NCBI GenBank assembly: GCA_964483115.1 | Contig: CAYZZF010000001.1 | Span: forward strand, 85,907-143,121 | DNA from: an uncultured Gammaproteobacteria bacterium | GTDB taxonomy: Bacteria; Patescibacteriota; Microgenomatia; Levybacterales; UBA12049 | Reading direction: 5' to 3' | DNA length: 57,215 nt | Shown: positions 33 through 55,932 of the stretch, one piece after another | Numbering within the stretch: position 1 is the first letter of the stretch | How the letters are laid out: the number at the start of each line of letters is the position of its first letter | Notes under the pieces: generated by a model | What the model was told of the DNA's origin: nothing | Database searches by the model: none | What the model saw: the letters and a program-made list of their open reading frames with translations, nothing else | Program-made: the position numbers and the translations under genes

Positions 33-1214
33 ATGACAATTGGAATAAATGGTTTTGAAGCAGTAGTTCCAAGATTTGGATACGATAGAAAGACTGGCTT
101 ACCAAATAGAGTTGGAAGTGGACAATATTGTTATGAACTTCTTACATCTTTAAATAAAATTGATAGAGAAAATAATTATATTATTTATCTACCTCAAGGG
201 GCTACTTATGATTTACCTAAAGAAAGAGAAAACTGGCATTATAAAATTGTAAAACCAAGAAAGCTTTGGACGCTTTTTGGATTGTCTTTAGAATTCTTAA
301 TGAGACGTTCAAAAGTTGATGTATTTTTTTCTCCCACACATTATCTTCCTCTTTTTGTTTCAGTTTCTTCTACTATATCTATTCTCGACCTTTCATACAT
401 TCATTTCCCAGAGCTTTTTAAGAAAAAAGATTTAATTCAGTTAAATTTTTGGACTAAGTACTCGGTAAAAAAAACCAGACGTATTTTCACTATAAGCCAG
501 GCTTCCAAAGATGATATAATCAAAACATATGGTGTTGCGCAGGATAAGGTTATAGTTACATATCCTGGGGTAAAATCCGAAATCATAAATTCCAAATCTC
601 AAATAAATTCAAAATTCAAAATGCAAAATTCAAAATTATTAAAGGATAAATACGGTATTCAAAGACAATATATACTTTTTGTAGGAACACTGCAGCCAAG
701 AAAAAATATAGTTCGGCTCATTCAAGCATTCGCCAAAATCTCAAACCTCAAATCTCAAACCTCAAACCTACAGCTTGTAATAGTTGGTAAAAAAGGATGG
801 ATGTGGAAAGAGATTTTGAAGGCGCCAAAAAAACTTGAAGTAGAAAAACGTGTAAGATTTTTGCATAATGTCTCAGATGAGGATTTACCGGTATTTTATA
901 AAAACGCCATCTGTTTTATTTTACCAAGTCTTTATGAAGGCTTTGGCTTGCCAATTCTTGAGGCTATGAAGTATGGGTGCCCTGTAATAACTAGTAATGT
1001 TTCAAGTCTTCCCGAGGCCGGAGGAGATGCGGCATTATATTTTAATCCTTTAGATGTTTCGGACATCAAAAATAAGATAGAACAAGTTTTGGAAGATAAA
1101 GAACTTAAAAGACAAATGATAGAAAAAGGATATGAGCAAGTTAAAAAATTTTCCTGGGAAAAAACAGCACGCAAAACCCTTGAGGTCTTGCAAGAATTAA
1201 GTATGAAGAAATAA
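33..1214 (+). CDS. Glycosyltransferase family 4 (GT-B, group 1)
   Basis: 393-aa ORF. C-terminal EGFGLPILEAMKYGCPVITSNVSSLPEAGGDAALYFNP is the canonical GT4 E-x7-E region. Contains two 7-bp-periodic arrays. Confidence 0.85.
   Translation: MTIGINGFEAVVPRFGYDRKTGLPNRVGSGQYCYELLTSLNKIDRENNYIIYLPQGATYDLPKERENWHYKIVKPRKLWTLFGLSLEFLMRRSKVDVFFSPTHYLPLFVSVSSTISILDLSYIHFPELFKKKDLIQLNFWTKYSVKKTRRIFTISQASKDDIIKTYGVAQDKVIVTYPGVKSEIINSKSQINSKFKMQNSKLLKDKYGIQRQYILFVGTLQPRKNIVRLIQAFAKISNLKSQTSNLQLVIVGKKGWMWKEILKAPKKLEVEKRVRFLHNVSDEDLPVFYKNAICFILPSLYEGFGLPILEAMKYGCPVITSNVSSLPEAGGDAALYFNPLDVSDIKNKIEQVLEDKELKRQMIEKGYEQVKKFSWEKTARKTLEVLQELSMKK
572..637 (+). repeat. 7-bp-periodic A-rich array (degenerate, ~9 units) in GT4 gene
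   Basis: aaaatcc gaaatca taaattc caaatct caaataa ... caaaatt caaaatg caaaatt caaaatt. Encodes SEIINSKSQINSKFKMQNSKL. Confidence 0.8.
736..770 (+). repeat. Heptamer array AAATCTC/AAACCTC x5 in GT4 gene
   Basis: aaatctc aaacctc aaatctc aaacctc aaaccta. Encodes ISNLKSQTSNLQ. Confidence 0.9.
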
Positions 1215-1223
1215 GTATTAAAT

Positions 1224-1775
1224 ATGGAAAAAGTTTCTAGAAGAATAAAAACTATTTGTCTAGAATTTTGGGTAATGATTTTGAATTATGTTATTGGCTA
1301 CACGCCTTCTCATTACTTAAGACGCTTTTTCTATCGGCTTTCGGGGGTGAAAATCGGCAAAGGATCAACGATTCATATGGAAGCGAGGTTTTATAATCCT
1401 TCCAACATTGCAATCGGGGAAGATACAATAGTTGGAGAAAAAGCTGTTTTAGATGGGCGAGACAGACTTGTTATTGGAAACCACGTAGATATTGCTTCAG
1501 AGGTTATGATTTATAATTCAGAGCATAATGTACAAAGTTCTGATTTTCATGCTATAACTGCGCCAGTTATTATTGAAGACTACGTTTTTATTGGGCCAAG
1601 AGCTATAGTCCTACCGGGTATTAAGATTAAAAAAGGCGCTGTTGTTGGAGCAGGTGCTGTTGTGACAAAGGATGTTGCGGAACTTACAATTGTTGGTGGT
1701 ATTCCCGCAAGACCCATCGGAGAAAGAAAAAATAACCTAAACTATAAACTGGGTAGAGCGGCATGGTTTCGTTAA
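1224..1775 (+). CDS. Hexapeptide-repeat (left-handed beta-helix) O-acetyltransferase, WcaF/CysE-like
   Basis: 183-aa ORF with imperfect hexapeptide repeats (IGEDTIVGEKAVL, IGPRAIVLPGIKIKKGAVVGAGAVV) and a C-terminal VGGIPARPIG motif. Confidence 0.75.
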   Translation: MEKVSRRIKTICLEFWVMILNYVIGYTPSHYLRRFFYRLSGVKIGKGSTIHMEARFYNPSNIAIGEDTIVGEKAVLDGRDRLVIGNHVDIASEVMIYNSEHNVQSSDFHAITAPVIIEDYVFIGPRAIVLPGIKIKKGAVVGAGAVVTKDVAELTIVGGIPARPIGERKNNLNYKLGRAAWFR

Positions 1776-1792
1776 AATAGTAAAATTTTTTG

Positions 1793-2668
1793 ATGGTAAA
1801 ATTATCTATTATCGTCCTCACATATAATACAAAAGATTTAATCCTTGGTTGTATTCAGTCAATGATAAAACAATACAGAAAAAGGTTTGAAAATCAAGAA
1901 CTAGAACTGATAGTTGCTGATAATGCATCAACAGACGGGACAGTAAAAACAATCTCAAATCTCAAATCTGAAATCTTAAATCTCAAATTAATCCAAAATA
2001 AAAAGAATTACGGTTTTGGTAAAGGAAACAATATTGCCGCGAAAAATGCAGAGGGAGAGTATTTGCTTTTTTTAAACTCCGATACGCAAGTCAAAGATAG
2101 AGGATTTTTAAAAATGATTGAATTTTTGGATAAAAACCCTGACATTGGTATTTTAGGAGGAAGGCTTACCAATCCAGACGGATTACCTCAAGCGTCGGCA
2201 GGCTCTTTTTACACTCTCCCAAATCTTTTTTTAATGCTTATTGGGGCAGAAAGAATAGGACTTACTCGGTCAAGTCCTTTAAAAATATCAAGAGTTGATT
2301 GGATAAGTGGAGCTTGTATGATGGTACGAGCCAAGCTTTTTGAAGAATTGAAAGGTTTTGATGAAAACCTCTTTATGTATATGGAGGATGTAGAATTATG
2401 TTTTAGGGCAAAAAAGAAAGGAGCTCTGACATATTTTTATCCTAACATTAATGTAGTTCATAAGAAGCTTGGTAGCAGTAACAGAAACTTTGCTATTATT
2501 AATATTTATAGAGGGATTTTATATTTTTATAAAAAACATAAGAATTATTGGGAATACATTTTGGCAAAGATTTTATTAACTTTTAAAGCGATAATTGCGA
2601 TTTTAATTGGAATTTTAATTGGCAATAATTATCTTAAGAATACATATAGAAAAGCTATAAGATTTTAG
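1793..2668 (+). CDS. Glycosyltransferase family 2
   Basis: LSIIVLTYNT...ADNASTDGT...FLNSDT...MEDVELC motifs typical of GT2. The ATG at 1793 is preferred over the TTG at 1790. Carries one 7-bp array. Confidence 0.8.
   Translation: MVKLSIIVLTYNTKDLILGCIQSMIKQYRKRFENQELELIVADNASTDGTVKTISNLKSEILNLKLIQNKKNYGFGKGNNIAAKNAEGEYLLFLNSDTQVKDRGFLKMIEFLDKNPDIGILGGRLTNPDGLPQASAGSFYTLPNLFLMLIGAERIGLTRSSPLKISRVDWISGACMMVRAKLFEELKGFDENLFMYMEDVELCFRAKKKGALTYFYPNINVVHKKLGSSNRNFAIINIYRGILYFYKKHKNYWEYILAKILLTFKAIIAILIGILIGNNYLKNTYRKAIRF
1950..1991 (+). repeat. Heptamer array AAATCTN x6 in GT2 gene
   Basis: caatctc aaatctc aaatctg aaatctt aaatctc aaattaa. Encodes ISNLKSEILNLKL. Confidence 0.9.
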
Positions 2669-2669
2669 T

Positions 2670-5822: not shown

Positions 5823-7268
5823 ATGAAGAGAATAGAGATTCTTTTAGTGATATTGATTTTACTTGGGGCGTTTTTAGTAAGGCTTTATAAATTCAATAAT
5901 CCTGTTGCAGACTGGCAGTCTTGGCGCCAGGCAGATACGTCTGCAGTATCTCGTAATTTTATTAAAAAGGGATTTGATATTCTGCATCCAAGATTCGATG
6001 ATTTATCAAATGTTCCTTCAAATTTTTTCGACAACCCTAATGGCTACCGTTTCGTAGAATTTCCAATTTATAACATTGCTCAGGCTGGAGTTTTTAAAAT
6101 TTTTGACCGTTTTACAATTGAAGAGTGGGGGAGGCTCATTTCGATTCTTTCATCCCTTGCCGCATCCCTTTTTATTTTCTTAATAGTTAAAAAACATCAA
6201 AGTAAACTTGCAGGATTTCTGGCTCTTTTCTTTTTTGCCTTTCTTCCCTACAACATTTATTACAGCAGAACTATTTTACCCGATGTAATGATGCTCGCGA
6301 CGTTACTTGGAGGAATATTTTTCTTTGATCTATGGCTTGAAAGAAAAAGATTTACGATCTACGATCTACGATTTACGATTACACTTATTTTTACTGCTTC
6401 ATCTTTACTTCTTAAACCTTTTGCTTTATTTTTTACTCTACCTTTAGTTTATCTTGCTTTCAATAAATTCGGGTTTAGCTTTTTAAAAAAGTGGCAATTA
6501 TGGCTTTTTCTTTTTATCGCCATAGCGCCACTTGCATTTTGGAGAATATGGATGCTTCAGTATCCCGCGGGAATACCCAGAAGCGATTGGCTTTTTAATA
6601 TGAATGATATTAGATTTAAAGGGGCGTTTTTTTCGTGGTTATTTGACAAAAGAATAGCCAATTTAATTTTAGGTGCATGGGGATTGCCTCTTTTTATTCT
6701 GGGGTTATTGTCTAAAACCAACAAAAAAAGCTATGTTTTCTTTCTAACATTTCTAATATCTTCTCTTTTATATATTTTCGTTGTCGCAGGCGGCAATGTA
6801 CAGCATGACTACTACCAAATTCCTATAGTACCAAGTCTAATTATATTCGTTTCTTTAGGTGGTGAATATCTTCTTACGCTAAATACATCGCTTTTAAGAC
6901 GTAGTCTAGGTCTTTTATTATTTGTTATTCTTGCACTATTTATGTTTGCCTTTTCCTGGCAAGATATTCGTGCTTATTATAATATAAATAACCCAGCTAT
7001 TGTTCGTGCTGGACGAGCAGTTGATAGACTAATTCCAGAAAATGCAAAAGTAATAGCCCCCTATGAGGGGGACACATCATTTCTATATCAAATAAAAAGA
7101 CAAGGATGGGCTAGTTTTGAAAAACCGCTGCCTCAAATGATTAAAATGGGAGCAGACTATCTTGTCTTGGTTAATCCCCAAAAAAAAGATTATGATATAG
7201 GAAAGACCTATAAAATAGTTTCGGCAACCCCGGATTATATATTGTTTAATCTTCACCAAAAGCCATGA
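5823..7268 (+). CDS. GT-C type membrane glycosyltransferase (ArnT/PMT-like, family 39/83-like)
   Basis: 481-aa polytopic ORF. The N-terminal loop ADWQSWRQADTSAVSRNF and overall topology are typical of GT-C enzymes that use lipid-linked sugar donors. Confidence 0.55.
   Translation: MKRIEILLVILILLGAFLVRLYKFNNPVADWQSWRQADTSAVSRNFIKKGFDILHPRFDDLSNVPSNFFDNPNGYRFVEFPIYNIAQAGVFKIFDRFTIEEWGRLISILSSLAASLFIFLIVKKHQSKLAGFLALFFFAFLPYNIYYSRTILPDVMMLATLLGGIFFFDLWLERKRFTIYDLRFTITLIFTASSLLLKPFALFFTLPLVYLAFNKFGFSFLKKWQLWLFLFIAIAPLAFWRIWMLQYPAGIPRSDWLFNMNDIRFKGAFFSWLFDKRIANLILGAWGLPLFILGLLSKTNKKSYVFFLTFLISSLLYIFVVAGGNVQHDYYQIPIVPSLIIFVSLGGEYLLTLNTSLLRRSLGLLLFVILALFMFAFSWQDIRAYYNINNPAIVRAGRAVDRLIPENAKVIAPYEGDTSFLYQIKRQGWASFEKPLPQMIKMGADYLVLVNPQKKDYDIGKTYKIVSATPDYILFNLHQKP
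6351..6380 (+). repeat. Heptamer array TNTACGA x4 in GT-C gene
   Basis: tttacga tctacga tctacga tttacga. Encodes RFTIYDLRFTI. The unit composition differs from the A-rich arrays, but the 7-bp period is the same. Confidence 0.85.
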
Positions 7269-8467
7269 AGATACTAATGGTTTCATCATATTTGCCCTAC
7301 CCATTATTTTCAGGAGGCCATATTCGCCTGTACAATTTATTGAAAAATCTTTCTGAAAATTACGATATAGTGTTGGTTTGTGAGAAAAGACCTTATCAAA
7401 CAGAGAAGGATGTAAAAGAAGTTGAAAAACTTTGCAGGACGTTGATAACTTTTGATAGAAAAAGAGCCTGGTCGTTAAAAAATGTATTAAAAACAGGTTT
7501 TTCGACCAATCCATTTTTATTAACGACTCATAGAAATTTAAAAATGAAAAGAGAAATTGAAGATCTTCTGAAAAAAGAAAAATTTGATTTAGTTCATGTT
7601 GAAACATTCTACGTGATGCAAAACCTGCCTAAAGTTTCAATTCCCGTAGTTTTAACAGAACACAATATAGAATATCAAATTTACAAAAGATATAAAGATA
7701 GTGTTGCATTTTTTCTTCGCCCATTGCTAAATATAGATATTTTAAAGCTTGAAAATCAGGAAGAAAAATTTTGGAAAAGAGCAAATTGCGTCGTTACAGT
7801 TTCAAAAGAAGATAAAGAAATAATAGAGATGTTTAATAGGAGAGTTTATATGGTGCCAAATGGAGTCGACCTGGAAAAATTCAAAATTCAAAATTCAAAA
7901 TTCAAAATTGATAAAAAAGAAAAGACTGTACTCTTTATTGGCGATTTTAAATGGGTACAAAATAGAGATTCACTGGAGTGGATATTAAAAAAAATATGGC
8001 CATTGTTCAAATCAAAAGTCAAAAGTCAAAAGTCAAAAGTCAAATTGTGGGTGGTTGGAAAAAATATTCCTGATAAGTTTAAAAATCCTAAAAATACAAT
8101 GTTGGACCTCGTTGTTGATGGGAATGCGCCGGATGACACCACTCAGATTTTTCAAAAAGCAGATCTTCTTCTTTCTCCCATCAGAGTGGGAGGCGGAACA
8201 AGCTATAAAATACTTGAAGCAATGGCATCTGGAGTTCCTATCATTACAACTAAATTAGGAGCAGATCCTCTTGGTGCAGTAGATGGTAAAGAAATTATTA
8301 TTTCTGAAGATGAGGAAGAGATTGCAGACAAAATTATAAGTTTGTTAAACGATAGAGGTCTTTATGAAAAAATCGCAAAGAATGCGCGGAAATTAGTCGA
8401 GAAGAAATATGATTGGAAAAAAATTACGAAAAAACTAGAAGATGTTTACCTTTCAGTTGTTCATTGA
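7265..8467 (+). CDS. Glycosyltransferase family 4
   Basis: 400-aa ORF with VGGGTSYKILEAMASGVPIITT and NGVD motifs. Overlaps the upstream stop by 4 nt. Carries two perfect 4-unit heptamer arrays. Confidence 0.85.
   Translation: MKILMVSSYLPYPLFSGGHIRLYNLLKNLSENYDIVLVCEKRPYQTEKDVKEVEKLCRTLITFDRKRAWSLKNVLKTGFSTNPFLLTTHRNLKMKREIEDLLKKEKFDLVHVETFYVMQNLPKVSIPVVLTEHNIEYQIYKRYKDSVAFFLRPLLNIDILKLENQEEKFWKRANCVVTVSKEDKEIIEMFNRRVYMVPNGVDLEKFKIQNSKFKIDKKEKTVLFIGDFKWVQNRDSLEWILKKIWPLFKSKVKSQKSKVKLWVVGKNIPDKFKNPKNTMLDLVVDGNAPDDTTQIFQKADLLLSPIRVGGGTSYKILEAMASGVPIITTKLGADPLGAVDGKEIIISEDEEEIADKIISLLNDRGLYEKIAKNARKLVEKKYDWKKITKKLEDVYLSVVH
7875..7909 (+). repeat. Heptamer array CAAAATT x4 perfect (+1 variant) in GT4 gene
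   Basis: aaaaatt caaaatt caaaatt caaaatt caaaatt. Encodes KFKIQNSKFKI. Confidence 0.95.
8005..8046 (+). repeat. Heptamer array TCAAAAG x4 perfect (+2 variants) in GT4 gene
   Basis: gttcaaa tcaaaag x4 tcaaatt. Encodes FKSKVKSQKSKVKL. Confidence 0.95.
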
Positions 8468-8468: not shown

Positions 8469-9365
8469 ATGATTGACCTTTCAATAATTATTGTTTCATT
8501 CAACACGAAAGAATTTGTTAAAAAATGCATAGACGCAATTTACAAATCGGATTTTTGCAAAAGATACGAAATTATTCTTGTTGATAACGCCTCATCTGAT
8601 GGTACTGCCCAGTATATCCGAAAAAGATTTCCCGGAGTTATTCTAGTTGAAAGTGATGAAAATTTGGGTTTTTCAAAAGCGAACAATATCGGGGTTAAAA
8701 GATCCGTTGGCAGGTTTCTCCTGTTTTTAAATCCCGACACAGAAGTAAATAAAAATACATTATCCTACATGATTTCGTTTATGGAAAACCGTAAAGATGT
8801 TGGTGCTTCGACTTGTTTCGTAAAACTTTCCTCAGGTAGACTTGATGATGGGGCCCATCGTGGATTTCCAACTCCCTGGAGTTCTTTTTGTTATTTTTCA
8901 GGATTAAGTCGTATTTTCCCAAAAAGTAAATTGTTCTCTGGATACACGATGGGATGGCTTGATTTAACAAAAGAACATGAAGTGGATTCGGTTGTGGGAG
9001 CTTTTATGATGGCAAGAAGAAAGGCGGGGGATGAGATAAATTGGTGGGATGAAGATTATTTTTTTTACGGAGAAGACATAGATTTTTGTTTTCGACTTAA
9101 AGAAAAAGGCTGGAAAGTATATTTCGTACCAAAAGTTTCAGCACTTCATCATAAAGGAATTTCTGGCGGCATTAAGAAACATTCAAATAAAATATCAACA
9201 GCAAGTTTGCAGACAAAAATGATGGCAACAAATGCTCGTTTTAATGCTATGAGAATTTTTTATAAAAAACATTATCAAGATAAATATCCGAAAATTCTTA
9301 GTAGCTTTATATTAGCTGTAATAGAGATTAAAAGAAAAATGGCTCTTTCGTCTATTCAAAAATGA
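8469..9365 (+). CDS. Glycosyltransferase family 2
   Basis: MIDLSIIIVSFNT...VDNASSDGT...FLNPDT...GEDIDFCFR motifs. The ATG at 8469 is chosen because the 8442 start would overlap the upstream gene. Confidence 0.8.
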   Translation: MIDLSIIIVSFNTKEFVKKCIDAIYKSDFCKRYEIILVDNASSDGTAQYIRKRFPGVILVESDENLGFSKANNIGVKRSVGRFLLFLNPDTEVNKNTLSYMISFMENRKDVGASTCFVKLSSGRLDDGAHRGFPTPWSSFCYFSGLSRIFPKSKLFSGYTMGWLDLTKEHEVDSVVGAFMMARRKAGDEINWWDEDYFFYGEDIDFCFRLKEKGWKVYFVPKVSALHHKGISGGIKKHSNKISTASLQTKMMATNARFNAMRIFYKKHYQDKYPKILSSFILAVIEIKRKMALSSIQK

Positions 9366-10516
9366 GAATTGGAATTGATTGCCGGTTCTGGAATGAAACA
9401 GGAGTTGGACGCTATATTCGAAATCTTGTTTCAAATTTGGCTCAAATAGATAAACAAAATGATTATGTTTTGTTTGTTAAATCAGAAAATATAAATAATG
9501 TTAGACTTATAACTCATAATTCAAGATTCATAATTAAAACCACAGATATTTCCTGGCATGGAATTGAAGAGCAAATTCGACTTCCAGGAATTTTGAACTC
9601 TCAAAACTTAGATCTTGTTCATTTTCCATATTTTTCAGTTCCAATTTTTTACAATAAGCCTTTTATAGTCACTATTCATGATTTAATTCAATGGCATTTT
9701 TCAACAGGTAAAGCGTCAACTTTACCCTACCCTTTTTATATGGTAAAGTTTTTCGGATATAAATTTGTTATTAAGAGCGCGGCTCAAAAGGCAAAAAGAA
9801 TAATTACTGTTTCAAATGCCACAAAAGAAGAAATCGTAGATCATTTAAAAATTCCATCTGAGAAAATTGAAGTGGTACATGAGGGAGTCGACCCTCAAAT
9901 TACAAATTCCAAATTACAAATTCAAAATAAATTTCAAAATACAAAATACAAAATACACAATGCTTCATACTTTCTTTACGTTGGGAACGCTTATCCTCAT
10001 AAAAATCTCGAAAAATTAATTGAGGCTTTCAAAAATCTCAAATCTCAAATCTCAAATCTCAAAACTACAGATCAAAGCTTAAAGCTAGTGTTAATTGGAA
10101 GACAAGATTACTTTTATAAAAGATTGAAAGAGAAGGTGTCAAGAATGAAGATTGCTGGCTCAATCGAATTTTACGAAGAGGCAAGTGATAAAGAATTGAG
10201 GGTTTTGTATGAAAATGCAAGAGTTCTCATTATTCCGTCTCTTATGGAGGGGTTTGGATTGCCGGCTTTGGAGGCAATGGCAAATAAATGTTTAGTTTTG
10301 GCATCAAATACCCCAGCTATTAAAGAAGTTTGCGGGGAAGACGCACTGTACTTTAATCCATATGATATAAACGATATTTCGGAGAAATTAAAAGTGGTAT
10401 ATGAGGGGAAATTTGATAAAAAAATAATTGAAAAAGGATTTAAAAGAAGCAAAGAATTCTCTTGGCATAAAACGTCCGAGGAAACATTGAGAATCTATGA
10501 ACAGACGATAAGTTAG
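9362..10516 (+). CDS. Glycosyltransferase family 4
   Basis: 384-aa ORF with EGFGLPALEAMANKCLVLASNTPAIKEVCGEDALYFNP. Carries two heptamer arrays at the same relative positions as the other GT4 paralogs. Confidence 0.85.
   Translation: MRIGIDCRFWNETGVGRYIRNLVSNLAQIDKQNDYVLFVKSENINNVRLITHNSRFIIKTTDISWHGIEEQIRLPGILNSQNLDLVHFPYFSVPIFYNKPFIVTIHDLIQWHFSTGKASTLPYPFYMVKFFGYKFVIKSAAQKAKRIITVSNATKEEIVDHLKIPSEKIEVVHEGVDPQITNSKLQIQNKFQNTKYKIHNASYFLYVGNAYPHKNLEKLIEAFKNLKSQISNLKTTDQSLKLVLIGRQDYFYKRLKEKVSRMKIAGSIEFYEEASDKELRVLYENARVLIIPSLMEGFGLPALEAMANKCLVLASNTPAIKEVCGEDALYFNPYDINDISEKLKVVYEGKFDKKIIEKGFKRSKEFSWHKTSEETLRIYEQTIS
9895..9957 (+). repeat. Composite heptamer array (NCAAATT x4, then CAAAATA x3) in GT4 gene
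   Basis: tcaaatt acaaatt ccaaatt acaaatt ... caaaata caaaata caaaata. Encodes QITNSKLQIQNKFQNTKYKIH. Confidence 0.9.
10033..10067 (+). repeat. Heptamer array AAATCTC x4 perfect in GT4 gene
   Basis: aaatctc x4, then aaaacta. Encodes NLKSQISNLKT. Confidence 0.95.
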
Positions 10517-10589: not shown

Positions 10590-10853
10590 TTAATGGGATT
10601 CTAGAACGGTAAGACGTTCTAGCTTTTCGTCAACCTTCTTAGCTTTCTCTTCAATATTTTTTACTCTTACCTCAATTTTTAATAACTCACTTCTTAAATT
10701 TCTAGAATCTGCTTTCGTGACAAACTTTCTTAAAGATTTTTCAATTCTTTTTATATCTTTCTTTGTTTCAGGTTGATTATTGTTAATTTTTTGGTCATGG
10801 ATAATTAGTATAACACCCCTTTTTTTCTTATCTGTCAATATGACAAACTGCAA
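10590..10853 (-). CDS. Hypothetical small charged/coiled-coil protein
   Basis: 87-aa ORF, the only minus-strand ORF in the glycan locus. Lys/Glu-rich heptad-like sequence with no recognisable motif. Confidence 0.35.
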   Translation of the reverse strand: MQFVILTDKKKRGVILIIHDQKINNNQPETKKDIKRIEKSLRKFVTKADSRNLRSELLKIEVRVKNIEEKAKKVDEKLERLTVLESH

Positions 10854-10876: not shown

Positions 10877-11977
10877 GTGAAAGTGGCGCTTGTATATGAT
10901 CGGGTTAATAAGTGGGGAGGAGCAGAAAGAATTTTGCTCGCACTTCATAAGATTTTTCCGCAGGCTCCTTTGTTTACTTCAGTTTATGATAAAGAAAAAG
11001 CGCCCTGGGCAGAAGTTTTTAAGATTAAAACTTCCTTTCTCCAGAATTTTCCATTTGCCATGCGCCATGAACTATATGCTAGTCTTATGCCTTTGGCTTT
11101 TGAAAGTTTTTCTTTTACTGAATATGACTTGGTAATTTCTCTAACATCAGAGGCAGCGAAAGGTATAATCACAAAGCCCGGCACTTTACACATTTGTTAC
11201 TGTCTTACTCCAACTAGATATTTATGGAGTAGTTTTGATGAGTATTTTAGAAACCCTCTCCTTCGTTTTATTTCAAAACCAGCTGTTTCATATTTAAGAA
11301 TCTGGGACAAAATAGCAGCTCAAAGACCAGATAAATTTATTGCAATATCAAAGGAAGTCCAAAAGAGAATTAAAAAATATTACAATCGGGATTCGGATGT
11401 TATTTATCCTCCGTTGATGCTCATGGCAAATAGCAAATGGCGTATAGAAAAAAAAACTATAAACCATAAGCCGTACGCTAATAGCTATTTTTTAATTGTT
11501 TCTCGTCTTGTTCCTTATAAAAGAATAGATATTATTATAAAAGCTTTTAATAAATTAAAGCTACCATTGAAAATTATAGGAACAGGTTCTGAAGAAGGGC
11601 GACTTAAAAGAAAAGCAGGACCTAATATTGAATTCTTAGGTAACTTGACTGATAAAGAATTGATAGGGTATTATATAGATTGTCGTGCTTTTGTTTTTGC
11701 GGGTAGAGAGGATTTTGGATTAACGGTTCTTGAGGCTCAGAGTTTTGGCAAGCCAGTTATCGCTTATAAACAGGGAGGAGTACTTGAGACAGTAGTTGAA
11801 AATAAAACTGGAGTATTTTTTACTCCTCAAACCGAAGAAGCGCTAATTGAAGCATTAAAAAAATTTATGAGCTTACGTTTTGACCCAAAAGAATGCATAA
11901 GACAAGCACAGAGATTTAACATTAAAATATTCGAAAAAAGATTTAAAGAAGAAATTAAACTAATAACTAATAACTAA
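10877..11977 (+). CDS. Glycosyltransferase family 4
   Basis: 366-aa ORF (GTG start). N-terminal KVALVYDRVNKWGGAERIL and C-terminal EDFGLTVLEAQSFGKPVIAYKQGGVLETV are typical GT4. The stop codon lies inside a TAATAAC array. Confidence 0.8.
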   Translation: MKVALVYDRVNKWGGAERILLALHKIFPQAPLFTSVYDKEKAPWAEVFKIKTSFLQNFPFAMRHELYASLMPLAFESFSFTEYDLVISLTSEAAKGIITKPGTLHICYCLTPTRYLWSSFDEYFRNPLLRFISKPAVSYLRIWDKIAAQRPDKFIAISKEVQKRIKKYYNRDSDVIYPPLMLMANSKWRIEKKTINHKPYANSYFLIVSRLVPYKRIDIIIKAFNKLKLPLKIIGTGSEEGRLKRKAGPNIEFLGNLTDKELIGYYIDCRAFVFAGREDFGLTVLEAQSFGKPVIAYKQGGVLETVVENKTGVFFTPQTEEALIEALKKFMSLRFDPKECIRQAQRFNIKIFEKRFKEEIKLITNN

Positions 11978-11990
11978 TAACTAATAACTA
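11954..11990 (+). repeat. Heptamer array TAATAAC x4 perfect spanning the GT4 stop codon and the intergenic spacer before manC
   Basis: attaaac taataac x4 ta. The TAA stop of the 10877 gene (11975-11977) lies inside the array. Confidence 0.95.
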
Positions 11991-13077: not shown

Positions 13078-13079
13078 TT

Positions 13080-36998: not shown

Positions 36999-37030
36999 AA
37001 AAAATTCAAAATTAAAAATTAAAAAAAATT
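36999..37030 (+). repeat. Intergenic 7-bp-periodic A-rich array (aaaaatt caaaatt aaaaatt ...)
   Basis: Same unit family as the intragenic arrays. Lies just upstream of the 37041 start. Confidence 0.6.
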
Positions 37031-44059: not shown

Positions 44060-45183
44060 AAATTGCAATCATTGGAGGGCATCTATCGCCTGCTCTGTCT
44101 GTAATTGATGTCTTGCCAAAAAACACAAAGCTCCTATTTATAGGACGAAGATATACTTTTGAGGGAGATAAAACTTTATCCTTGGAATATAAAACCATAA
44201 CTGGTCTTGGAATTCAATTTTTACCCATCATAACCGCAAGGTTTCAAAGAAAATTTACAAGATATACTATTCCTTCCCTTTTTAAATTACCAACAGGATT
44301 TATTCAGGCATTTTCTATTCTTAATAAATTTAAGCCCGATGTGGTTTTGGGTTTTGGGGGATATTTAGAAATTCCAGTAGTCCTAGCGTCATTTTTTTTA
44401 AGAATTCCGGTTGTGATTCATGAACAGACTCAAGAAGCTGGTCTCGCAAATAAAATCAGCTCCCGGTTTGCTAAAAAAATCTGTGTGTCATGGAAATCTT
44501 CTGAAAAACATTTTCCAAAAGAAAAAACAACTTTTACAGGCAACCCAATAAGAAAATTCAAAATTCTCGCATCGCGGCGGAGCGGACAAAATTCAAAACT
44601 CAAAATTCAAGAAGACAACTTGCCGTTAATTTATATTACAGGAGGAAGTGCAGGCTCTCATTTTATAAATAATTTAGTAGAGGGGTGTTTGGAAAAATTA
44701 CTTAGGAATTTTAGAATAATTCATCAAACAGGAGAAACAGAAGAATTCAAGGATTTTACTAAACTTATCGCTCTTCGCAAAAAACTTTCGCCTAAACTTA
44801 CAGAAAGATATGTTATTCAAGAATTTATTGAACCCTTTGATGTTTTTCGCTTACTTAAAAGAGCAACACTTGTAATTGGAAGATCTGGAATAAATACTGT
44901 TTGCGAGCTTATGTATATAGGTACTCCCTGTCTTTTGATACCGCTGCCTTTCTCACAAAATAATGAACAATTTAAAAATGCAGTTCTTCTTAAAAAAATC
45001 GGAATTTGTGAGATTGCCGATCAGACTTATTTGGATTCCGAAAAGTTTTACCGCATTATAAAATCTATGATTAATAATATAGAAAACTATAAAAAAAATG
45101 CTCATAAGGCTAAAAGTTTTGTTCATAAAGATGCAGGTTTAAAAATAGTAAAAGTTTTAGAGTATGCGGCGAAGAATAAATAA
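44056..45183 (+). CDS. murG: UDP-GlcNAc--undecaprenyl-PP-MurNAc-pentapeptide GlcNAc transferase
   Basis: MKIAIIGGHLSPALSV, TGNPIR, ITGGSAGS and the C-terminal nucleotide-sugar-binding half. The ATG at 44056 overlaps the ftsW stop (ATGA); the 44008 extension in the track is rejected. Confidence 0.85.
   Translation: MKIAIIGGHLSPALSVIDVLPKNTKLLFIGRRYTFEGDKTLSLEYKTITGLGIQFLPIITARFQRKFTRYTIPSLFKLPTGFIQAFSILNKFKPDVVLGFGGYLEIPVVLASFFLRIPVVIHEQTQEAGLANKISSRFAKKICVSWKSSEKHFPKEKTTFTGNPIRKFKILASRRSGQNSKLKIQEDNLPLIYITGGSAGSHFINNLVEGCLEKLLRNFRIIHQTGETEEFKDFTKLIALRKKLSPKLTERYVIQEFIEPFDVFRLLKRATLVIGRSGINTVCELMYIGTPCLLIPLPFSQNNEQFKNAVLLKKIGICEIADQTYLDSEKFYRIIKSMINNIENYKKNAHKAKSFVHKDAGLKIVKVLEYAAKNK
44552..44610 (+). 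repeat. Two CAAAATT-type heptamer blocks flanking a 21-nt GC-rich core in murG
   Basis: gaaaatt caaaatt [ctcgcatcgcggcggagcgga] caaaatt caaaact caaaatt. Encodes KFKILASRRSGQNSKLKIQ in the GNPxR-to-GGS linker. Confidence 0.85.
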
Positions 45184-48591: not shown

Positions 48592-51435
48592 ATGTTTAAA
48601 CAGGTTTCGTCCAAAGTCGAGTTTTCAAAAATAGAAGAGAATGTCCTTGAATATTGGAAGAAAAATAAAATTTTCGAAAAATCAGTTAATTTAAGACCGA
48701 AAAATAAAAGATGGACATTTCTTGATGGTCCGCCTTTCATTACTGGTCTGCCTCATTACGGAAATTTACTATCAAGTATTCCAAAAGATGTTTTTCCAAG
48801 ATTTTGGACAATGAAAGGATATAGGGTACGCAGAGTTTGGGGATGGGATTGTCATGGGCTTCCAGCTGAAAATAAAGTTGAAGAAAAAGTAGGAATAAAA
48901 AGAAAAAAAGATATTGAAGAAAAAGTAGGAATAAAAAAATTTATTGACGAATGCAAATCATATGTAAGAAATGTTTCAAGCGAATGGGAATGGTACGTGG
49001 ATCATATCGGACGGTGGGTTAATTTTAAAAATGCTTATAAAACTATGGACTTATCCTACATGGAAAGTGTTATGTGGGTTTTTAAAAGTATGTATGACAA
49101 AGGATATATCTATAAAGGTCTTCGGGTTTCACTATTTTGTCCTCATTGCTCAACGCCAATATCTAATTTTGAAGTAGCAATGGATGCTGAAAACTATAAA
49201 GAATTAACTGAAAAAGCAAGTACCTATAAATATCCATTAAAAGGCGAAAAAGATACATATCTTCTTGCCTGGTCAACTACTCCGTGGAATAAATTGGCAA
49301 CTCCCGCTCTTGCCGTTAATCCCTCTTTGACCTATGTAAAAGTTTTGCAGGATAAAGAAAAATATATCTTGGCAAAAACAACCATAAAAATACTCAAAGA
49401 CAAACCATATAAAATTTTGGAAGAATTTAAGGGCAATAAATTAATAGGCAAGAAATTTATACCTCATTATAACTTTTACACAATTGATAAAAACAAGAAG
49501 GCATTCGTCGTAATAGGAGGGGACTTTGTGACTGCTGAGGAAGGTACGGGAATAGTGACGCTAGCGGTTTATGGAGAAGAAGATTTGAAAATTATGCAAA
49601 AGGAAAATATCCAGCTTGTAATGCATGTTGATGAAGAGGGAATTATTAAAAATGATGTTCCTAAATTTGGGGGCATATATTATCTAAAAGCAAATAAGGC
49701 AGTCAATGAAGATTTGAAAGAACGAAGATTATTATATCGTGAAGATGATTATGTTCATACAGTTGCACATTGCTGGAGATGCGGAACCCAATTATTTTAT
49801 GCGCCACAAAATGCATGGTATGTAAATATTCAAATTCTAAAAAAAAGACTGAAGAAGACAAATGGAAAGGTTAACTGGTTTCCTAGACATTTTAAAAAGG
49901 GAAGATTTCTAAAAAGTCTTGAAAATGCTCCTGATTGGAATATATCAAGAAACCGTTATTTTGGATCTCCAGTTCCTGTTTGGGAATGTGAGTGCGGAGA
50001 AAGGATTGTTCCCGGTTCCATCAGAGAACTTGAAGAATTAAGCGGGAGAAAGATTAATGATCTACACAAGCCTGAAATTGACTTAGTCACAATTAAATGT
50101 AAAAAATGTGGCAAAGACGCTCGTAGGGTCCCCGAAGTTTTAGATAGTTGGATTGAGGCAGGAAGTGCTTCATTTGCAGAACGGCATTATCCATTTGAAA
50201 AAAACGAACAACTTGAAGATTTCTTTCCTCCGGATTTTGTAGCAGAATATACAGGACAGATAAGAGCATGGTTTTATGTAGTTCATGTCATAGGAGGTGC
50301 TCTTTTTGATTCTCCTGCATTTAAAAATGTTGTTGTCGAGGGAGTAATTTTGGGAACAGACGGGCGAAAGATGAGCAAGAATTATGGGAATTATCCAGAT
50401 CCTAAGAAAATGCTTCAAAAATATGGGGGAGACGCATTGCGCTTATACCTTCTTAGAAGTCCTGTAATGAAGGGTGAAGATATTTTGATATCGGAAGAAC
50501 AGTATCGCAATCAGATAAAAGGAGTGATGCTTGTTTTATGGAATGTATATAATTTTTTTATAACTTATGCTGATATAGAGAATTGGAGTCCGAGAAAAAT
50601 TCAAAATCCAAAATTCTCATCCAAAAGACGACCGGTCTTTAGCCGAAAAAATACTTTAGATAAATGGATAATTTCTCTTTTAAATAAATTAATAAATGAA
50701 GTAACTGATGATTTAAATCATTACAATACTATTTCCAGCATTGATCATACTCAAAAGTTTATTGATGATTTATCAACATGGTACATCAGAAGAAGTAGGA
50801 ACAGAGTGGGTCCGACAGCCAAAATTGAAGAAGATAAAAATAATTTTTATTCAACTTGTTTTGAGGTTTTAAAAACTTTAGCAAAACTTATGGCACCAAT
50901 CACCCCCTTTATAACTGAAGAAATTTACAGAAATTTAACAAAAGAGGAATCTGTTCATCTTACTGATTGGCCAAAAATTGATAAGAGATTAATCGATGAA
51001 AAACTTGAGGAGAAAATGGAGATGATAAGAAAAATTGTTGAACTTGGGCACGCAAAAAGAAAAGAGCTTGGGATTAAAGTCAGACAACCACTCAAAAAAT
51101 ATCAAATATCAAATATCAAATATCAAATAGATGAGGATTTAGTTCAATTAATTCGAGAGGAGTTGAATGTTAGAGAAGTTGAAATTAAGCAGGGAAAAGG
51201 GGAGTTGGTTGTTGATTTTGATACAAAGATTACACAAGAACTTAAGGATGAGGGTTTCGCTCGGGAAATTGTGAGGAAAATTCAAGAAGAGAGAAAAAAA
51301 CTTGGTACAAAATTAGATGAGAAAGTAGATGTAGTAGTAGATAAGTGGCCCGTTGAATTTGAAGACTATATCAAAAATAAAGCTCTTGTTAGAAACATTA
51401 AGAGAGGCGATGGGTTTTCAGTTATTAGAACATGA
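48592..51435 (+). CDS. ileS: Isoleucine--tRNA ligase (type 2, eukaryote-like)
   Basis: PPFITGLPHYGN (HIGH-type), GWDCHGLPAE, a CxxC...CxC zinc cluster, KMSKNYGN (KMSKS). 947 aa. Contains two heptamer arrays and a 36-bp duplication. Confidence 0.88.
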   Translation: MFKQVSSKVEFSKIEENVLEYWKKNKIFEKSVNLRPKNKRWTFLDGPPFITGLPHYGNLLSSIPKDVFPRFWTMKGYRVRRVWGWDCHGLPAENKVEEKVGIKRKKDIEEKVGIKKFIDECKSYVRNVSSEWEWYVDHIGRWVNFKNAYKTMDLSYMESVMWVFKSMYDKGYIYKGLRVSLFCPHCSTPISNFEVAMDAENYKELTEKASTYKYPLKGEKDTYLLAWSTTPWNKLATPALAVNPSLTYVKVLQDKEKYILAKTTIKILKDKPYKILEEFKGNKLIGKKFIPHYNFYTIDKNKKAFVVIGGDFVTAEEGTGIVTLAVYGEEDLKIMQKENIQLVMHVDEEGIIKNDVPKFGGIYYLKANKAVNEDLKERRLLYREDDYVHTVAHCWRCGTQLFYAPQNAWYVNIQILKKRLKKTNGKVNWFPRHFKKGRFLKSLENAPDWNISRNRYFGSPVPVWECECGERIVPGSIRELEELSGRKINDLHKPEIDLVTIKCKKCGKDARRVPEVLDSWIEAGSASFAERHYPFEKNEQLEDFFPPDFVAEYTGQIRAWFYVVHVIGGALFDSPAFKNVVVEGVILGTDGRKMSKNYGNYPDPKKMLQKYGGDALRLYLLRSPVMKGEDILISEEQYRNQIKGVMLVLWNVYNFFITYADIENWSPRKIQNPKFSSKRRPVFSRKNTLDKWIISLLNKLINEVTDDLNHYNTISSIDHTQKFIDDLSTWYIRRSRNRVGPTAKIEEDKNNFYSTCFEVLKTLAKLMAPITPFITEEIYRNLTKEESVHLTDWPKIDKRLIDEKLEEKMEMIRKIVELGHAKRKELGIKVRQPLKKYQISNIKYQIDEDLVQLIREELNVREVEIKQGKGELVVDFDTKITQELKDEGFAREIVRKIQEERKKLGTKLDEKVDVVVDKWPVEFEDYIKNKALVRNIKRGDGFSVIRT
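48878..48937 (+). repeat. In-frame 36-bp direct duplication in ileS (24 bp identical)
   Basis: ttgaagaaaaagtaggaataaaaa occurs at 48878-48901 and again at 48914-48937. It encodes EEKVGIKRKKDI-EEKVGIKK. Confidence 0.85.
50594..50640 (+). repeat. Heptamer block followed by a small GC-rich hairpin/palindrome in ileS
   Basis: gaaaaat tcaaaat ccaaaat, then AAAGAC-gaccg-GTCTTT (contains the 8-bp palindrome gaccggtc at 50630-50637). Encodes KIQNPKFSSKRRPVF. Confidence 0.75.
51099..51129 (+). repeat. Heptamer array ATATCAA x4 perfect in ileS
   Basis: atatcaa x4, then ata. Encodes KYQISNIKYQI. Confidence 0.95.
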
Positions 51436-54705: not shown

Positions 54706-54777
54706 GGACTCGTGGTTCAGAGGTAGAACGCTCGCTTCACATGCGAGAGGTCGATGGTTCGATTCCATCCGGGTCCA
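54706..54777 (+). tRNA. tRNA-Val (anticodon CAC)
   Basis: Hand-folded cloverleaf. Acceptor GGACTCG/CGGGTCC (one G-U), D-arm GTTC-AGAGGTA-GAAC, anticodon arm CTCGC-TTCACAT-GCGAG, variable AGGTC, T-arm GATGG-TTCGATT-CCATC, discriminator A. CCA is not encoded. Confidence 0.85.
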
Positions 54778-54846
54778 CAAAGTCCAATCAGGCAGGGCGT
54801 TCGATTCGCATTCGAAAGGCCGGGGGTTCGAGACTCTCCGGATCTA
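54771..54846 (+). tRNA. Non-canonical tRNA-Ala(CGC)-like element overlapping the last 7 nt of tRNA-Val
   Basis: Perfect anticodon arm TTCGA-TTCGCAT-TCGAA, variable AGGCC, T-arm GGGGG-TTCGAGA-CTCTC (G53-C61 kept, two G-U). Acceptor GGGTCCA/CGGATCT pairs at 6 of 7 positions and includes G3:U70 with an A73 discriminator. The D-arm GTCC-AATCAGGCA-GGGC needs a 4-nt (not 2-nt) connector. Confidence 0.3.
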
Positions 54847-54888
54847 TCTAACTATTGCCTCCAAACTAAAGAAGAAAGACGAGAAAGA

Positions 54889-55932
54889 ATGAAAGTTTTA
54901 TTTTTGACAAGGCTTTTTTATCCCCATATTGGTGGGGTTGAAAAGCATGTGTATGAAATTAGTAAACGACTTATTAAATTAGGATACGAGGTTACTGTTG
55001 TAACCGAAACTATTACTCATCAACTCAAAACTCAAAATTCAAATCTTGACAAAATAGGAATTTTAAGAATTCCAGTTGGTAAAGATGACTGGTTTAAAAA
55101 GTTTAGAATTTGGAGAGAAGTTTGGAAGACCAGAAAACTTATTCAAGACGCAGATGTTATACATTGCCATGATGTTTTTTTCTGGTATTTGCCCTTTCGA
55201 TTTATTTATCCATCAAAACCTGTTTATACCACTTTTCACGGGTACGAGGGAAACAAAATTCCTTCCAAAAAAGCAATTTTAATGCATAAAATTGCAGAAA
55301 AACTGTCAAAAGGCAATATTTGTATTGGAGATTTTTTGAAAAAGTGGTATGGAACACGGCCAACTTACGTCACCTATGGCGCAGTCAAAATCCAAAATCC
55401 AAAATTCAAAATAAATTCAAAATTGAAAATACTCTTTTTAGGGAGAATTGAGGAAGAGACAGGGATTATGGAATACTTGAAGGCATTAAAGATTTTAAAG
55501 GATAAAAGGCAAAGCTTTGAATTAACAGTTTTAGGAGACGGGTCATTGAGAGATAAATCAGAAAAGTTCTCTAAAAAAAATAATTTAAAGGTAGTCTTTA
55601 AAGGATTTATAAAGGACGTGAACAAATTTATTCTTCAGTCAAATTATGTGTTCGCTTCAAGATATTTGGGAATTTTGGAGGGATTGGCAGCTAAAAAATT
55701 TGTTTTTGCACAATATAATAATGCGATAAAAAAGGATTATTTAAAAATGGCTCCTTTTGTCAAGTTCATATCCATTGCAAAAAACTATCAAGAGCTTTCA
55801 AGTCAAATAGAATTTTTTCTTAAAAACGAATCAGAAAGAAACCAGAAGATTATGGGCGGATTTTATTGGGTCTCGGGTCAGACTTGGGACAAAGTTGTAG
55901 AAATCTATTTAAGACTGTGGGATTTTAGGTAA
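54889..55932 (+). CDS. Glycosyltransferase (GT4-like, GT-B fold)
   Basis: MKVLFLTRLFYPHIGGVEKHVYEISKRL is a typical GT4 N-terminus. The ATG at 54889 is chosen because the 54754 start in the track runs through the tRNA genes. Carries two heptamer arrays. Confidence 0.7.
   Translation: MKVLFLTRLFYPHIGGVEKHVYEISKRLIKLGYEVTVVTETITHQLKTQNSNLDKIGILRIPVGKDDWFKKFRIWREVWKTRKLIQDADVIHCHDVFFWYLPFRFIYPSKPVYTTFHGYEGNKIPSKKAILMHKIAEKLSKGNICIGDFLKKWYGTRPTYVTYGAVKIQNPKFKINSKLKILFLGRIEEETGIMEYLKALKILKDKRQSFELTVLGDGSLRDKSEKFSKKNNLKVVFKGFIKDVNKFILQSNYVFASRYLGILEGLAAKKFVFAQYNNAIKKDYLKMAPFVKFISIAKNYQELSSQIEFFLKNESERNQKIMGGFYWVSGQTWDKVVEIYLRLWDFR
55016..55047 (+). repeat. Heptamer array ACTCAAA-type x3-4 in GT4-like gene
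   Basis: ctcatca actcaaa actcaaa attcaaa. Encodes HQLKTQNSNL. Confidence 0.8.
55384..55432 (+). repeat. Heptamer array TCCAAAA/TTCAAAA-type x6-7 in GT4-like gene
   Basis: gtcaaaa tccaaaa tccaaaa ttcaaaa taaattc aaaattg aaaatac. Encodes VKIQNPKFKINSKLKI. Confidence 0.85.

Follow-up and report, generated by a model that had tools for sequence, protein, structure and literature searches.

Translated heptanucleotide tandem repeats in a Levybacterales genome and the constraints that probably shape them

Among long simple repeats, heptanucleotides form the largest class in many prokaryotes; polymerase slippage involving a 7-nt contact has been suggested as their source, and the unit length of repeats inside genes is usually divisible by three (Mrazek 2007, as relayed in PMC4679880 and PMC4692102). 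The GGGNATC arrays of Xanthomonas and Nostoc are mostly intergenic, prefer four units and in some cases overlap stop codons (Rehm et al. 2015, PMC4692102), and TAACTGA direct repeats lie 5′ of start codons in Beggiatoaceae, cyanobacteria and Bacteroidetes (MacGregor 2015, PMC4679880). Within a gene, the (AAGACTC)n array of neuO, from the E. coli K1 prophage CUS-3, is translated in three phases, is in frame at multiples of three units and changes by slippage (PMC13001214). Here we describe heptanucleotide tandem arrays in a 57,215-nt stretch of DNA, hereafter the window (positions 85,907 to 143,121 of contig CAYZZF010000001.1, assembly GCA_964483115.1; Patescibacteriota, Microgenomatia, Levybacterales, UBA12049), most of which lie inside genes. 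Heptamers are oddly dominant among the long simple repeats of bacteria, as was flagged nearly two decades ago, and their behaviour inside genes makes the question of why heptamers testable: in a genome that is 93% coding, frame, stops and peptide tolerance report what mutation makes versus what selection removes. The best explanation, to which we assign a probability of about 0.68, treats the arrays as heptanucleotide microsatellites under three constraints: the frame, which only steps of three units preserve, the avoidance of stops, and the peptides that the host protein tolerates.

Occurrence and authenticity of period-7 arrays

Tandem Repeats Finder recovered period-7 tandem arrays at all positions listed by a first-pass annotation made from the letters of the window. 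An exact lag scan found eight perfect arrays of at least three units at period 7, spanning 3.3 to 4.9 units, and none at periods 4-6 and 8-15. With one mismatch allowed (strict criterion, at most one mismatch per 14 lag-7 comparisons), the scan returned 17 arrays at period 7 versus 0-2 at any other period in the range 5-21; once decayed copies are counted, the total rises to about 24. In 200 dinucleotide-preserving shuffles the mean was 0.06 arrays and the maximum 1, and in this comparison periods 5, 6 and 8-11 gave 0-2 arrays in the window. The window arrays thus consist of a 7-nt unit repeated head to tail in at least three copies, and they occur above chance and specifically at period 7, as do those of the related loci that were also scanned.

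Two independent Logan assemblies (SRR5161795 and SRR5161805) match window positions 20541-40873 without a gap over 20.3 and 16.6 kb and reproduce six arrays with every host open reading frame (ORF) open. Both Logan contigs (L001 and L002; k = 31) start at window 20541, inside the perfect AAATTTC array 20537-20569, suggesting either that identical 31-mers occur at another locus or in another organism of the sample, or that the array is heterogeneous in length; a break of the k = 31 graph at this array is expected if the same unit is present elsewhere in the sample. This break, together with the known difficulty of assembling tandem repeats, is what speaks for regarding the arrays as assembly or sequencing artefacts, or as plain low complexity of an AT-rich genome. 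Such a reading is effectively excluded by the 17 arrays observed versus 0.06 in shuffles, by three assemblies that agree without gaps and with all host ORFs in frame, and by orthologous arrays in genomes from unrelated assembly studies. The first-pass annotation had named composition-matched chance and assembly artefact among its grounds for doubt, and the arrays withstood both.

The arrays and their hosts are given below in window coordinates; GT denotes glycosyltransferase families.

571-637, plus strand: two adjoining arrays in GT4 gene 33-1214; 571-604 is a degenerate TAAATCC/AAATCTC array and 605-637 is AAATTCA, 4.7 units with one mismatch; peptide KSEIINSKSQINSKFKMQNSK
736-769, plus strand: AAATCTC/AAACCTC, 4.9 units, in GT4 gene 33-1214, immediately ahead of the L-x-I-V strand
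1951-1988, plus strand: AATCTCA, 5.4 units, imperfect, in GT2 gene 1790-2668
6349-6380, plus strand: GATTTAC/GATCTAC, 4.6 units, T-rich, in the membrane GT-C (PMT_2) gene 5823-7268; hydrophobic peptide FTIYDLRFTI
7876-7909, plus strand: AAAATTC, 4.9 units, perfect, in GT4 gene 7265-8467, right behind the NGVD..F motif; orthologous arrays in L206, L205 and L208/L209
8012-8044, plus strand: TCAAAAG, 4.7 units, perfect, in GT4 gene 7265-8467, in the loop ahead of the KLWVVG strand
9895-9957, plus strand: composite, CAAATTA units followed by CAAAATA units (about 9 together), in GT4 gene 9362-10516
10033-10063, plus strand: AAATCTC, 4.4 units, perfect, in GT4 gene 9362-10516
11958-11990, plus strand: AACTAAT (= TAACTAA), 4.7 units, perfect; takes in the GT4 stop codon (gene 10877-11977), with 4 nt between the array and the start codon at 11995
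13745-13770, plus strand: ATTAGTT/ATAAGTT, about 3.5 units, at the stop where ORF 13080-13745 ends; its unit is the 11958 unit in reverse complement
20537-20569, plus strand: AAATTTC, 4.7 units, perfect, in rsmH 20355-21248; orthologous arrays in L018 and L027
24268-24298, plus strand: AATTCAA, 4.4 units, imperfect, in murE 23291-24496 (site B); orthologous array in L007 (AGAATTC)
29040-29072, plus strand: TAATACT, 4.7 units, imperfect, across the stop of ORF 28574-29056; abuts the glmS start from upstream
29196-29227, plus strand: AAATCCA, 4.6 units, perfect, in glmS 29080-30873, in the segment behind YDSWGIA
29271-29297, plus strand: degenerate TAAATCA array in glmS, conserved in the relative L003
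34098-34122, minus-strand host: TATGAAA on the plus strand, 3.5 units; the sense (minus) strand of ORF 32881-34383 reads CATATTT, with hydrophobic peptide ISYFIFHNF
36996-37025, no strand assigned: intergenic A-rich AATTAAA/AATTCAA, grading into low-complexity A-rich DNA
44553-44610, plus strand: (CAAAATT), 5.4 units (44553-44566 and 44587-44610) split by a GC-rich insert, in murG 44008-45183, in the interdomain linker from GNPxR to GGS
50596-50614, plus strand: AAAATYC, 2.7 units, in ileS 48592-51435
51097-51129, plus strand: AAATATC, 4.7 units, perfect, in ileS; peptide KYQISNIKYQI
55022-55043, plus strand: AACTCAA, 3.1 units, in GT4 gene 54754-55932
55385-55431, plus strand: composite of about 7 units, CAAAATC and CAAAATT, in GT4 gene 54754-55932

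Pfam agrees with the host genes as first named, that is five GT4, one GT2, the PMT_2 (GT-C) gene, rsmH, murE, glmS, murG and ileS. Twenty of the 24 arrays lie inside ORFs, one of them antisense within the minus-strand ORF 32881-34383; of the others, three run across a stop codon (11958, 13745 and 29040) and the array at 36996 lies between genes. Of the 24 arrays, 4 fall in non-coding DNA, which makes up 7.1% of the window, a 2.3-fold enrichment in density (p = 0.09), and glycosyltransferase genes hold 13/24 in 14% of the window, about 7 times the density per bp (p = 5e-6). Nearly all genes of the window are on the plus strand, and GC skew is positive throughout. An Rfam scan of the window returned tRNA only, with no family on the arrays. 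The tRNA-Val gene 54706-54778 overlaps the mechanical start of the GT4 ORF 54754-55932, so that the true start codon of this gene lies farther downstream than 54754.

Other repeats in the window differ in kind. A perfect 20-nt direct repeat, AAAATGGAATAAAGTGGGAA, occurs twice at 19851-19889, just 5′ of a probable mraZ (19908-20351) at the head of the dcw cluster, and one may speculate that it is an operator-type repeat for MraZ. At 32125-32247, 37140-37196 and 40271-40342 there are ordinary in-frame repeats of 6-, 18- and 36-nt period (Pro/Thr-rich), together with a Gly-rich tract; they probably belong to secreted or surface proteins and have no relation to the heptamer arrays.

Copy-number change and unit turnover at orthologous sites

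Contigs L205 and L210, which come from two assemblies, show 0 mismatches over 14,361 aligned bp, and their sole difference is one 21-bp gap. This gap corresponds to exactly three AATTTCA units of the GT4 array orthologous to window 7876-7909, with alleles of 4.7 and 1.7 units, which is a whole-unit copy-number change of the slippage type. Collapse of k-mers was considered as the source of array length or of the L205/L210 difference and rejected, as assemblers using different k are concordant and the ORFs are in frame; the array of the short allele, at 14 bp, would moreover be shorter than any assembly k-mer. Among proteins, P0122 and P0128 match at 100% identity save for QISNFKF, and P0174 and P0206, 96.9% identical, are set apart by KFKVQSL. 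The same two contigs carry at 2418-2786, in the syntenic glycan cluster of this relative and beside a heptamer array (L205 2362-2389), a gene of the bAvd / 23S_rRNA_IVP type. The bAvd type is the accessory protein type of diversity-generating retroelements.

Arrays also recur at orthologous sites with changed units. In rsmH, the window and L018 (61% protein identity) share a perfect AAATTTC array in identical codon phase; L027 has a perfect AAATCTC array at the same site and phase, with the T-to-C change repeated in every unit, L013 has AAAATTC/AAAATCC, L003 a decayed array, and distant orthologues unrelated sequence of similar length. At the first GT4 site, the window and L206 have the unit AAAATTC, L205 has AAATTTC and L208/L209 have AGAGTTC, in each case in phase with the conserved Phe codon of the NGVD..F motif. 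We aligned 120 GT4 homologues of 52-65% identity and inspected about 70; nearly all of these about 70 listed homologues have, at both GT4 sites, internally repeated heptad peptides, each with its own variant. The GlmS segment past YDSWGIA, two MurE loops and the GNPxR-GGS linker of MurG behave comparably. Arrays are thus kept at the same loops in orthologues of about 60% identity, perfect yet with swapped units, which is concerted evolution. Perfect 7-nt periodicity alongside diverged synonymous sites does not reflect selection at the protein level and requires homogenisation or selection at the level of DNA.

Orthologue alignments place the arrays in indel-rich loops. In an AlphaFold model of a GT4 protein, whose mean predicted local distance difference test (pLDDT) score is 91.5, the two array segments are coil or helix-end and fall in two of the three lowest-confidence blocks (72 and 77), so that both lines of evidence concur with the proposal that the arrays occupy variable loops. 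If instead the 7-residue periodic peptides were themselves selected, for example as flexible or amphipathic linkers of glycosyltransferases, the DNA periodicity would be a by-product. The heptad peptides at both GT4 sites throughout the homologue family would fit, as would the agreement of peptide hydropathy with the type of host protein and the effect of NeuO heptad-repeat number on catalytic activity, for which PMC13001214 cites earlier work. Protein selection permits synonymous codons, however, yet the arrays are DNA-perfect at a 7-nt and not a 21-nt period; the peptides vary freely among orthologues, many of which have no array at all, arrays of this kind are present in non-coding DNA too, and the modelled segments are coil or helix-end of lowest confidence. 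We therefore regard peptide selection as very unlikely.

Arrays containing TAA, with a stop in every frame, stand directly 5′ of the starts of glmS and of a nucleoside triphosphate (NTP) transferase gene in several species (window 29040-29072 and 11958-11990; L003 9947-9984; L069 9957-9980; L014 4798-4818; L016 9136-9156; L207 16608-16673). The intergenic L207 array, orthologous to 11958-11990, has about 9.4 units and mixes TAACTAA with TAACTGA. Such positions are consistent with arrays being DNA or RNA signals under purifying selection (sites for cold-shock-type proteins, translation pause or regulatory sites, all-frame stops), and so are perfect 31-34-bp arrays at orthologous sites (about 60% protein identity) whose flanking synonymous sites have diverged; translational regulation has been proposed for TAACTGA repeats, and CspB binds heptamer direct repeats (PMC4679880). 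This interpretation is nonetheless improbable. The unit differs among orthologues at one site, so that no sequence-specific reader fits, 3 of 4.7 units were lost in an otherwise identical genome, and many close relatives of equal GC content lack arrays at these sites. Positions inside genes track protein loops rather than transcript landmarks, and no Rfam family matched. The ideas of a DNA/RNA signal and of a selected peptide, both raised in the first-pass annotation, therefore fit unit turnover and copy-number polymorphism poorly, whereas its third proposal, a slippage-driven process fixed where proteins tolerate it, agrees with the 21-bp polymorphism, with concerted evolution and with the stop-free and hydropathy filters described below.

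Homologues of GlmS assign the window to Candidatus Levybacteria (Microgenomates, candidate phyla radiation). A GlmS-based scan of representative genomes yielded 80 loci. The window has 3.0 arrays per 10 kb, and four relatives have 2.2 in their syntenic glycan gene clusters; the density is 0.45 in 31 Levybacteria-like glmS loci (arrays in 11/31), 0.27 in loci of the Peribacteria/Peregrinibacteria type and 0.08 in other Microgenomates, and periods 8-11 are essentially absent from all scanned locus sets. About half of the arrays in relatives have no long spanning ORF. Array-free orthologues, whose existence had been an initial question, are found in many close relatives of the same GC content. 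Among the matches listed, metagenome contigs with (CAAAATT)3 range in GC from 0.22 to 0.68, some arrays being abruptly AT-rich in GC-rich DNA, and in the 500 kb of these matches there are 64 further period-7 arrays of other units, versus 0-19 at other periods. Examples of (CAAAATT)n among these matches (L085-L164) are L139 1075-1132, L087 286-334 and L108 3167-3192, often beside other heptamer arrays, and arrays of other units exceed 90 bp, for instance in L133 and L147. Because they span so wide a range of GC, heptamer arrays are a broad bacterial phenomenon, of which the Levybacteria genome is a dense case. A literature search found no relevant report of heptamer or tandem repeats in the candidate phyla radiation (CPR), Patescibacteria or Levybacteria. 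In the Levybacteria clade, orthologous arrays can be traced across many species, with at least one three-unit polymorphism in otherwise identical DNA.

Constraints on the arrays and their probable origin

The seven longest perfect arrays of the window measure 31-34 bp (lag-7 runs of 24-27), and no runs of 17-23 or above 27 occur. We pooled perfect lag-7 runs across AT-rich loci and compared coding with non-coding DNA:

Runs of 17-20: 9 coding, 19 non-coding
Runs of 24-27: 28 coding, 14 non-coding
Runs of 31-41: 0 coding, 5 non-coding
Runs of 42 or more: 1 coding, 4 non-coding

The contrast between coding and non-coding DNA is significant both for runs of 17-20 versus 24-27 (Fisher, p = 0.007) and for runs of at least 31 (Fisher, p = 0.007). 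A coding peak at 24-27 and spread non-coding lengths are expected if a 3-6-nt seed expands freely outside genes and by threes inside them. Arrays in genes measure 12 or 31-34 bp, corresponding to about 1.7 and about 4.7 units respectively. The idea that arrays are written at a set length near 33 bp was rejected, as non-coding arrays differ in copy number, some being longer, and the frame filter explains the peak inside genes.

All in-ORF units with near-perfect copies lack stops in the three phases of the sense strand, and for 14/17 of these stop-free units the complementary strand carries at least one stop. The claim that the complement would hold TGA stops for most units is thus largely borne out, with a count that covers stops of any type. 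The four arrays outside ORFs have stop codons within the unit on both strands. Composition is equally restricted: 15/17 in-ORF units lack G and have at least three A, versus 8% of stop-free local 7-nt seeds (p ~5e-15), and the composition of local seeds alone was accordingly discarded as the cause of the unit repertoire in favour of a filter for AT-rich, stop-free units of suitable hydropathy. Enumeration gives 48 cyclic heptamers that are stop-free and hold six or more A/T. Hydrophilic peptides are encoded by only about 10 of them, and the window employs five of these about 10 (AAAATTC, AAAATAC, AAATTAC, AAATATC and AAATTTC). The two T-rich hydrophobic units lie in the membrane GT-C protein and in a hydrophobic segment of the minus-strand ORF 32881-34383. 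The first reading, that the A-rich strand is always the sense strand, holds for most arrays and fails at 6349 (T-rich, in the membrane GT-C gene) and 34098 (A-rich strand antisense); the rule and its two exceptions alike follow from the AT-rich, stop-free and hydropathy filters.

We propose that a lineage-specific, genome-wide slippage-type process with a strict 7-nt register would make and remake the arrays, and that selection would filter its products. A 3-6-nt direct repeat spaced 7 nt (about 1.7 units) would first grow by 7-nt units. Inside genes only a net change of three units (21 bp, 7 codons) preserves the frame, and in-gene sizes cluster at about 1.7 or 4.7 units because only three-unit changes do so. 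Since each array is read in all phases, only units stop-free in each phase persist. The resulting 7-aa periodic peptide would also have to fit its context: AT-rich units encoding hydrophilic K/N/Q/S/I/F peptides are kept where soluble enzymes have surface loops, and only in membrane proteins do T-rich hydrophobic units persist; this filter would account for the C-AAA-W-H-Y family of units and for the A-rich sense strand. Lastly, contraction and re-expansion, or unit conversion within arrays, may homogenise them faster than point mutation degrades them, which would explain their long persistence, their perfection and the change of unit between species. The generator would be slippage during replication, or some comparable process in which a local 7-mer is copied reiteratively, and single-unit slips could switch glycosyltransferase genes off.

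Whether arrays lengthen their host loops varies from site to site. In GlmS the loop exceeds that of the closest array-free orthologues by 7 aa (21 bp), and in MurG it exceeds that of the shortest orthologues by the same amount. The rsmH array loop has the same length as in the array-free L068, and residues of human IleRS chain 9w01_B align with the ileS array 51097-51129 with no net insertion. The initial impression of overwritten loops rather than insertions is therefore right for RsmH and the second IleS array and wrong for GlmS and MurG (+7 aa) and for GT4, where the difference is a plain 21-bp indel. Length-neutral arrays could reflect either compensating deletions after expansion or misaligned pairing with correction that spreads the unit into the flanks.

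Several observations weigh against a slippage origin. Simple slippage cannot pass from 1.7 to 4.7 units in one step, and the +1 and +2 intermediates would frameshift ileS, murE, murG and glmS, so that a multi-unit stutter per event has to be assumed. Pure expansion predicts a gain in length, which the RsmH and second IleS arrays do not show relative to array-free relatives. Slippage in no way accounts for the missing arrays of periods 5, 6 and 8. The units are far narrower in composition than local 7-nt seeds, a result that we attribute to selection and that a sequence-specific mechanism would also give, and the same CAAAATT arrays appear abruptly in GC-rich metagenome contigs among the matches listed. 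No out-of-frame alleles were seen, and no length variation was found at six arrays among three assemblies of the organism.

Small GC-rich inserts are nested in some arrays. The first-pass annotation rightly recorded a period-7 array in murG and overlooked that its 5.4 (CAAAATT) units are parted by TCGCATCGCGGCGGAGCGGA (44567-44586), a 20/21-nt GC-rich hairpin encoding LASRRSG. Related loci hold an insert of 48 nt in murE (L019, 4293-4340) and one of 15 nt in murG (L027, 15930-15944), and L011 has a related murE insert and a second dispersed copy of the same ~30-nt element (positions 1976 and 3789). Compared with L208, to which it is 98-99% identical, L209 carries two inserts (about 10365-10400 and 10650-10673): one of 24 nt lies between (AGAGTTC) units at TTC^A and leaves the unit number unaltered, and the other, a 36-nt hairpin, lies elsewhere in the gene, outside any array. 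The position is TTC^A in 3/4 in-array cases (window murG, L019 and L209), and the inserts are 15-48 nt long and in frame within genes. An automatic screen for GC-rich inserts flanked by periodic DNA was over-strict and returned murG only, the other cases being recognised through protein indels; indels of 4-26 residues rich in P, A, G and R are frequent among GT4 and GlmS homologues. Small dispersed repeats nested in heptamer repeats of Nostoc were reportedly described by Elhai in 2008. That the arrays are footprints of an element with a 7-bp target duplication was rejected, as the L209 insert left the unit count unchanged.

On a minority reading, kept alive by the nested inserts, a single dedicated system would give rise to the arrays and the inserts alike. 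On this account a sequence-specific machinery (a mobile element, or a nuclease, recombinase or reverse transcriptase), shared with cyanobacteria and other phyla, would write the arrays, and slippage would only modify them later. It would explain units much more restricted than local 7-nt seeds, hairpin inserts at TTC^A in 3/4 in-array cases, an insert element with two dispersed copies in L011, and the overwritten look of the RsmH and IleS arrays without gain in length. It would also suit the abrupt (CAAAATT)n arrays of contigs with GC from 0.22 to 0.68, usually near other heptamer arrays among the matches listed, and a patchy phylogenetic distribution, horizontal transfer having been raised for TAACTGA repeats (PMC4679880). 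A further point in its favour is the presence of inverted array pairs: 11958-11990 and 13745-13770 flank in inverted orientation a two-gene cassette (11995-13745) of an NTP transferase and a Bac_transf-like ORF. Inverted heptamer array pairs are likewise present in the metagenome loci L096, L099, L108, L127 and L142, among the matches listed. We still hold a dedicated machinery to be unlikely. The sole direct polymorphism is a clean three-unit indel with no foreign sequence or flanking signature, the unchanged unit count beside the L209 insert leaves no 7-bp target duplication, and the unit at the first GT4 site arises from the conserved local Phe codon of the NGVD..F motif. In addition, the AT-rich, stop-free and hydropathy filters account for the narrow range of units, and no candidate enzyme was identified within the window.

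A more specific version appears doubtful too: a horizontally spread system would lay down repeated copies of a local 7-mer across about 25-35 nt, in some cases replacing what was there, would be tied to the TTC^A hairpin elements and would operate in CPR, cyanobacteria, Xanthomonas, Beggiatoaceae and others. If it were true, CPR proteins, including cell-wall enzymes and glycosyltransferases, would have a general generator of 7-residue loop variation.

The Levybacteria arrays show that genes expected to be essential (ileS, murE, murG and glmS) can bear hypermutable non-triplet microsatellites over long evolutionary times, with recurrent 7-residue loop variation and a standing risk of frameshift as the consequence. 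In practice, k = 31 assemblies break at the arrays and CPR proteins are credited with inflated insertions; the arrays could also be of use as strain-level markers.

Comparison with known repeat systems

The window arrays are neither clustered regularly interspaced short palindromic repeats (CRISPR), since their 7-nt units are contiguous and no spacers were found, nor repetitive extragenic palindromic (REP) sequences, bacterial interspersed mosaic elements (BIME) or miniature inverted-repeat transposable elements (MITE), as many different units occur and no palindromic structure was found, only the nested GC-rich inserts being hairpin-forming and dispersed. This agrees with what had first been concluded. 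Cyanobacteria reportedly harbour short tandemly repeated repetitive (STRR) heptamer arrays with nested, hairpin-forming dispersed elements of about 20-30 nt (Mazel 1990; Elhai et al. 2008). The hairpin inserts nested in the murG array of the window and in the arrays of L019, L027 and L209 resemble these elements by description; phylum and units are different, and the window arrays and inserts are in frame in genes.

The in-gene repeats of Borgs, which are archaeal extrachromosomal elements, reportedly have longer units with lengths divisible by three. In this trait the window arrays differ, the unit being 7 nt and the frame being kept solely by three-unit steps. A likeness lies in the perfect, fast-evolving repeats that arise independently in many unrelated genes of Borgs and in the low-complexity peptides thereby added, which create disordered protein regions (PMC9879509).

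The neuO array shares with the window arrays a 7-nt unit in an ORF, a heptad peptide, the three-unit frame rule and a host enzyme that modifies surface glycans. It is, however, a single 5′-terminal locus of 3-53 copies with frequent out-of-frame (OFF) alleles, a true contingency switch (PMC13001214), whereas the window has many mid-gene loci of about 4.7 units, housekeeping genes included, and only in-frame variants were seen. Like a contingency locus, the window arrays place a non-triplet repeat unit inside ORFs. No OFF alleles were found, only three-unit differences, the three assemblies being invariant at six arrays; nor are the hosts confined to dispensable surface genes or the arrays to 5′ ends, as the arrays are mid-gene and also occur in ileS, murE, murG, glmS and rsmH.

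The GGGNATC repeats are likewise dispersed heptamers with a preference for about four units, overlap with stop codons and occurrence on both strands; the window arrays differ in being A/T-rich and nearly G-free, and their size in genes is explained by the reading frame. The TAACTGA repeats are approached most closely by window array 11958-11990, whose TAACTAA unit is one base off, contains a stop and lies upstream of a start, and L207 holds TAACTGA itself. They differ from the window in that many units coexist here and most arrays are inside genes. With the heptanucleotide repeats of Mrazek, as relayed in PMC4679880 and PMC4692102, the window arrays share a strict 7-nt head-to-tail unit, dispersal, an excess at period 7, a scattered phylogeny and slippage as the proposed cause; the cases published there are mainly intergenic, whereas translation extends to 20/24 window arrays, and several of the host genes are presumably essential.

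The initial view that no named class of element fits was thus mistaken, for heptanucleotide tandem repeats are documented (PMC4679880, PMC4692102), as is an in-frame case, neuO (PMC13001214). The feature is real and highly non-random, and it belongs to the known class of heptanucleotide repeats rather than to a new one. What is new here is the mainly translated state of the arrays, including in housekeeping genes, their persistence through concerted evolution, and the sieve of frame, stops and hydropathy through which they pass.

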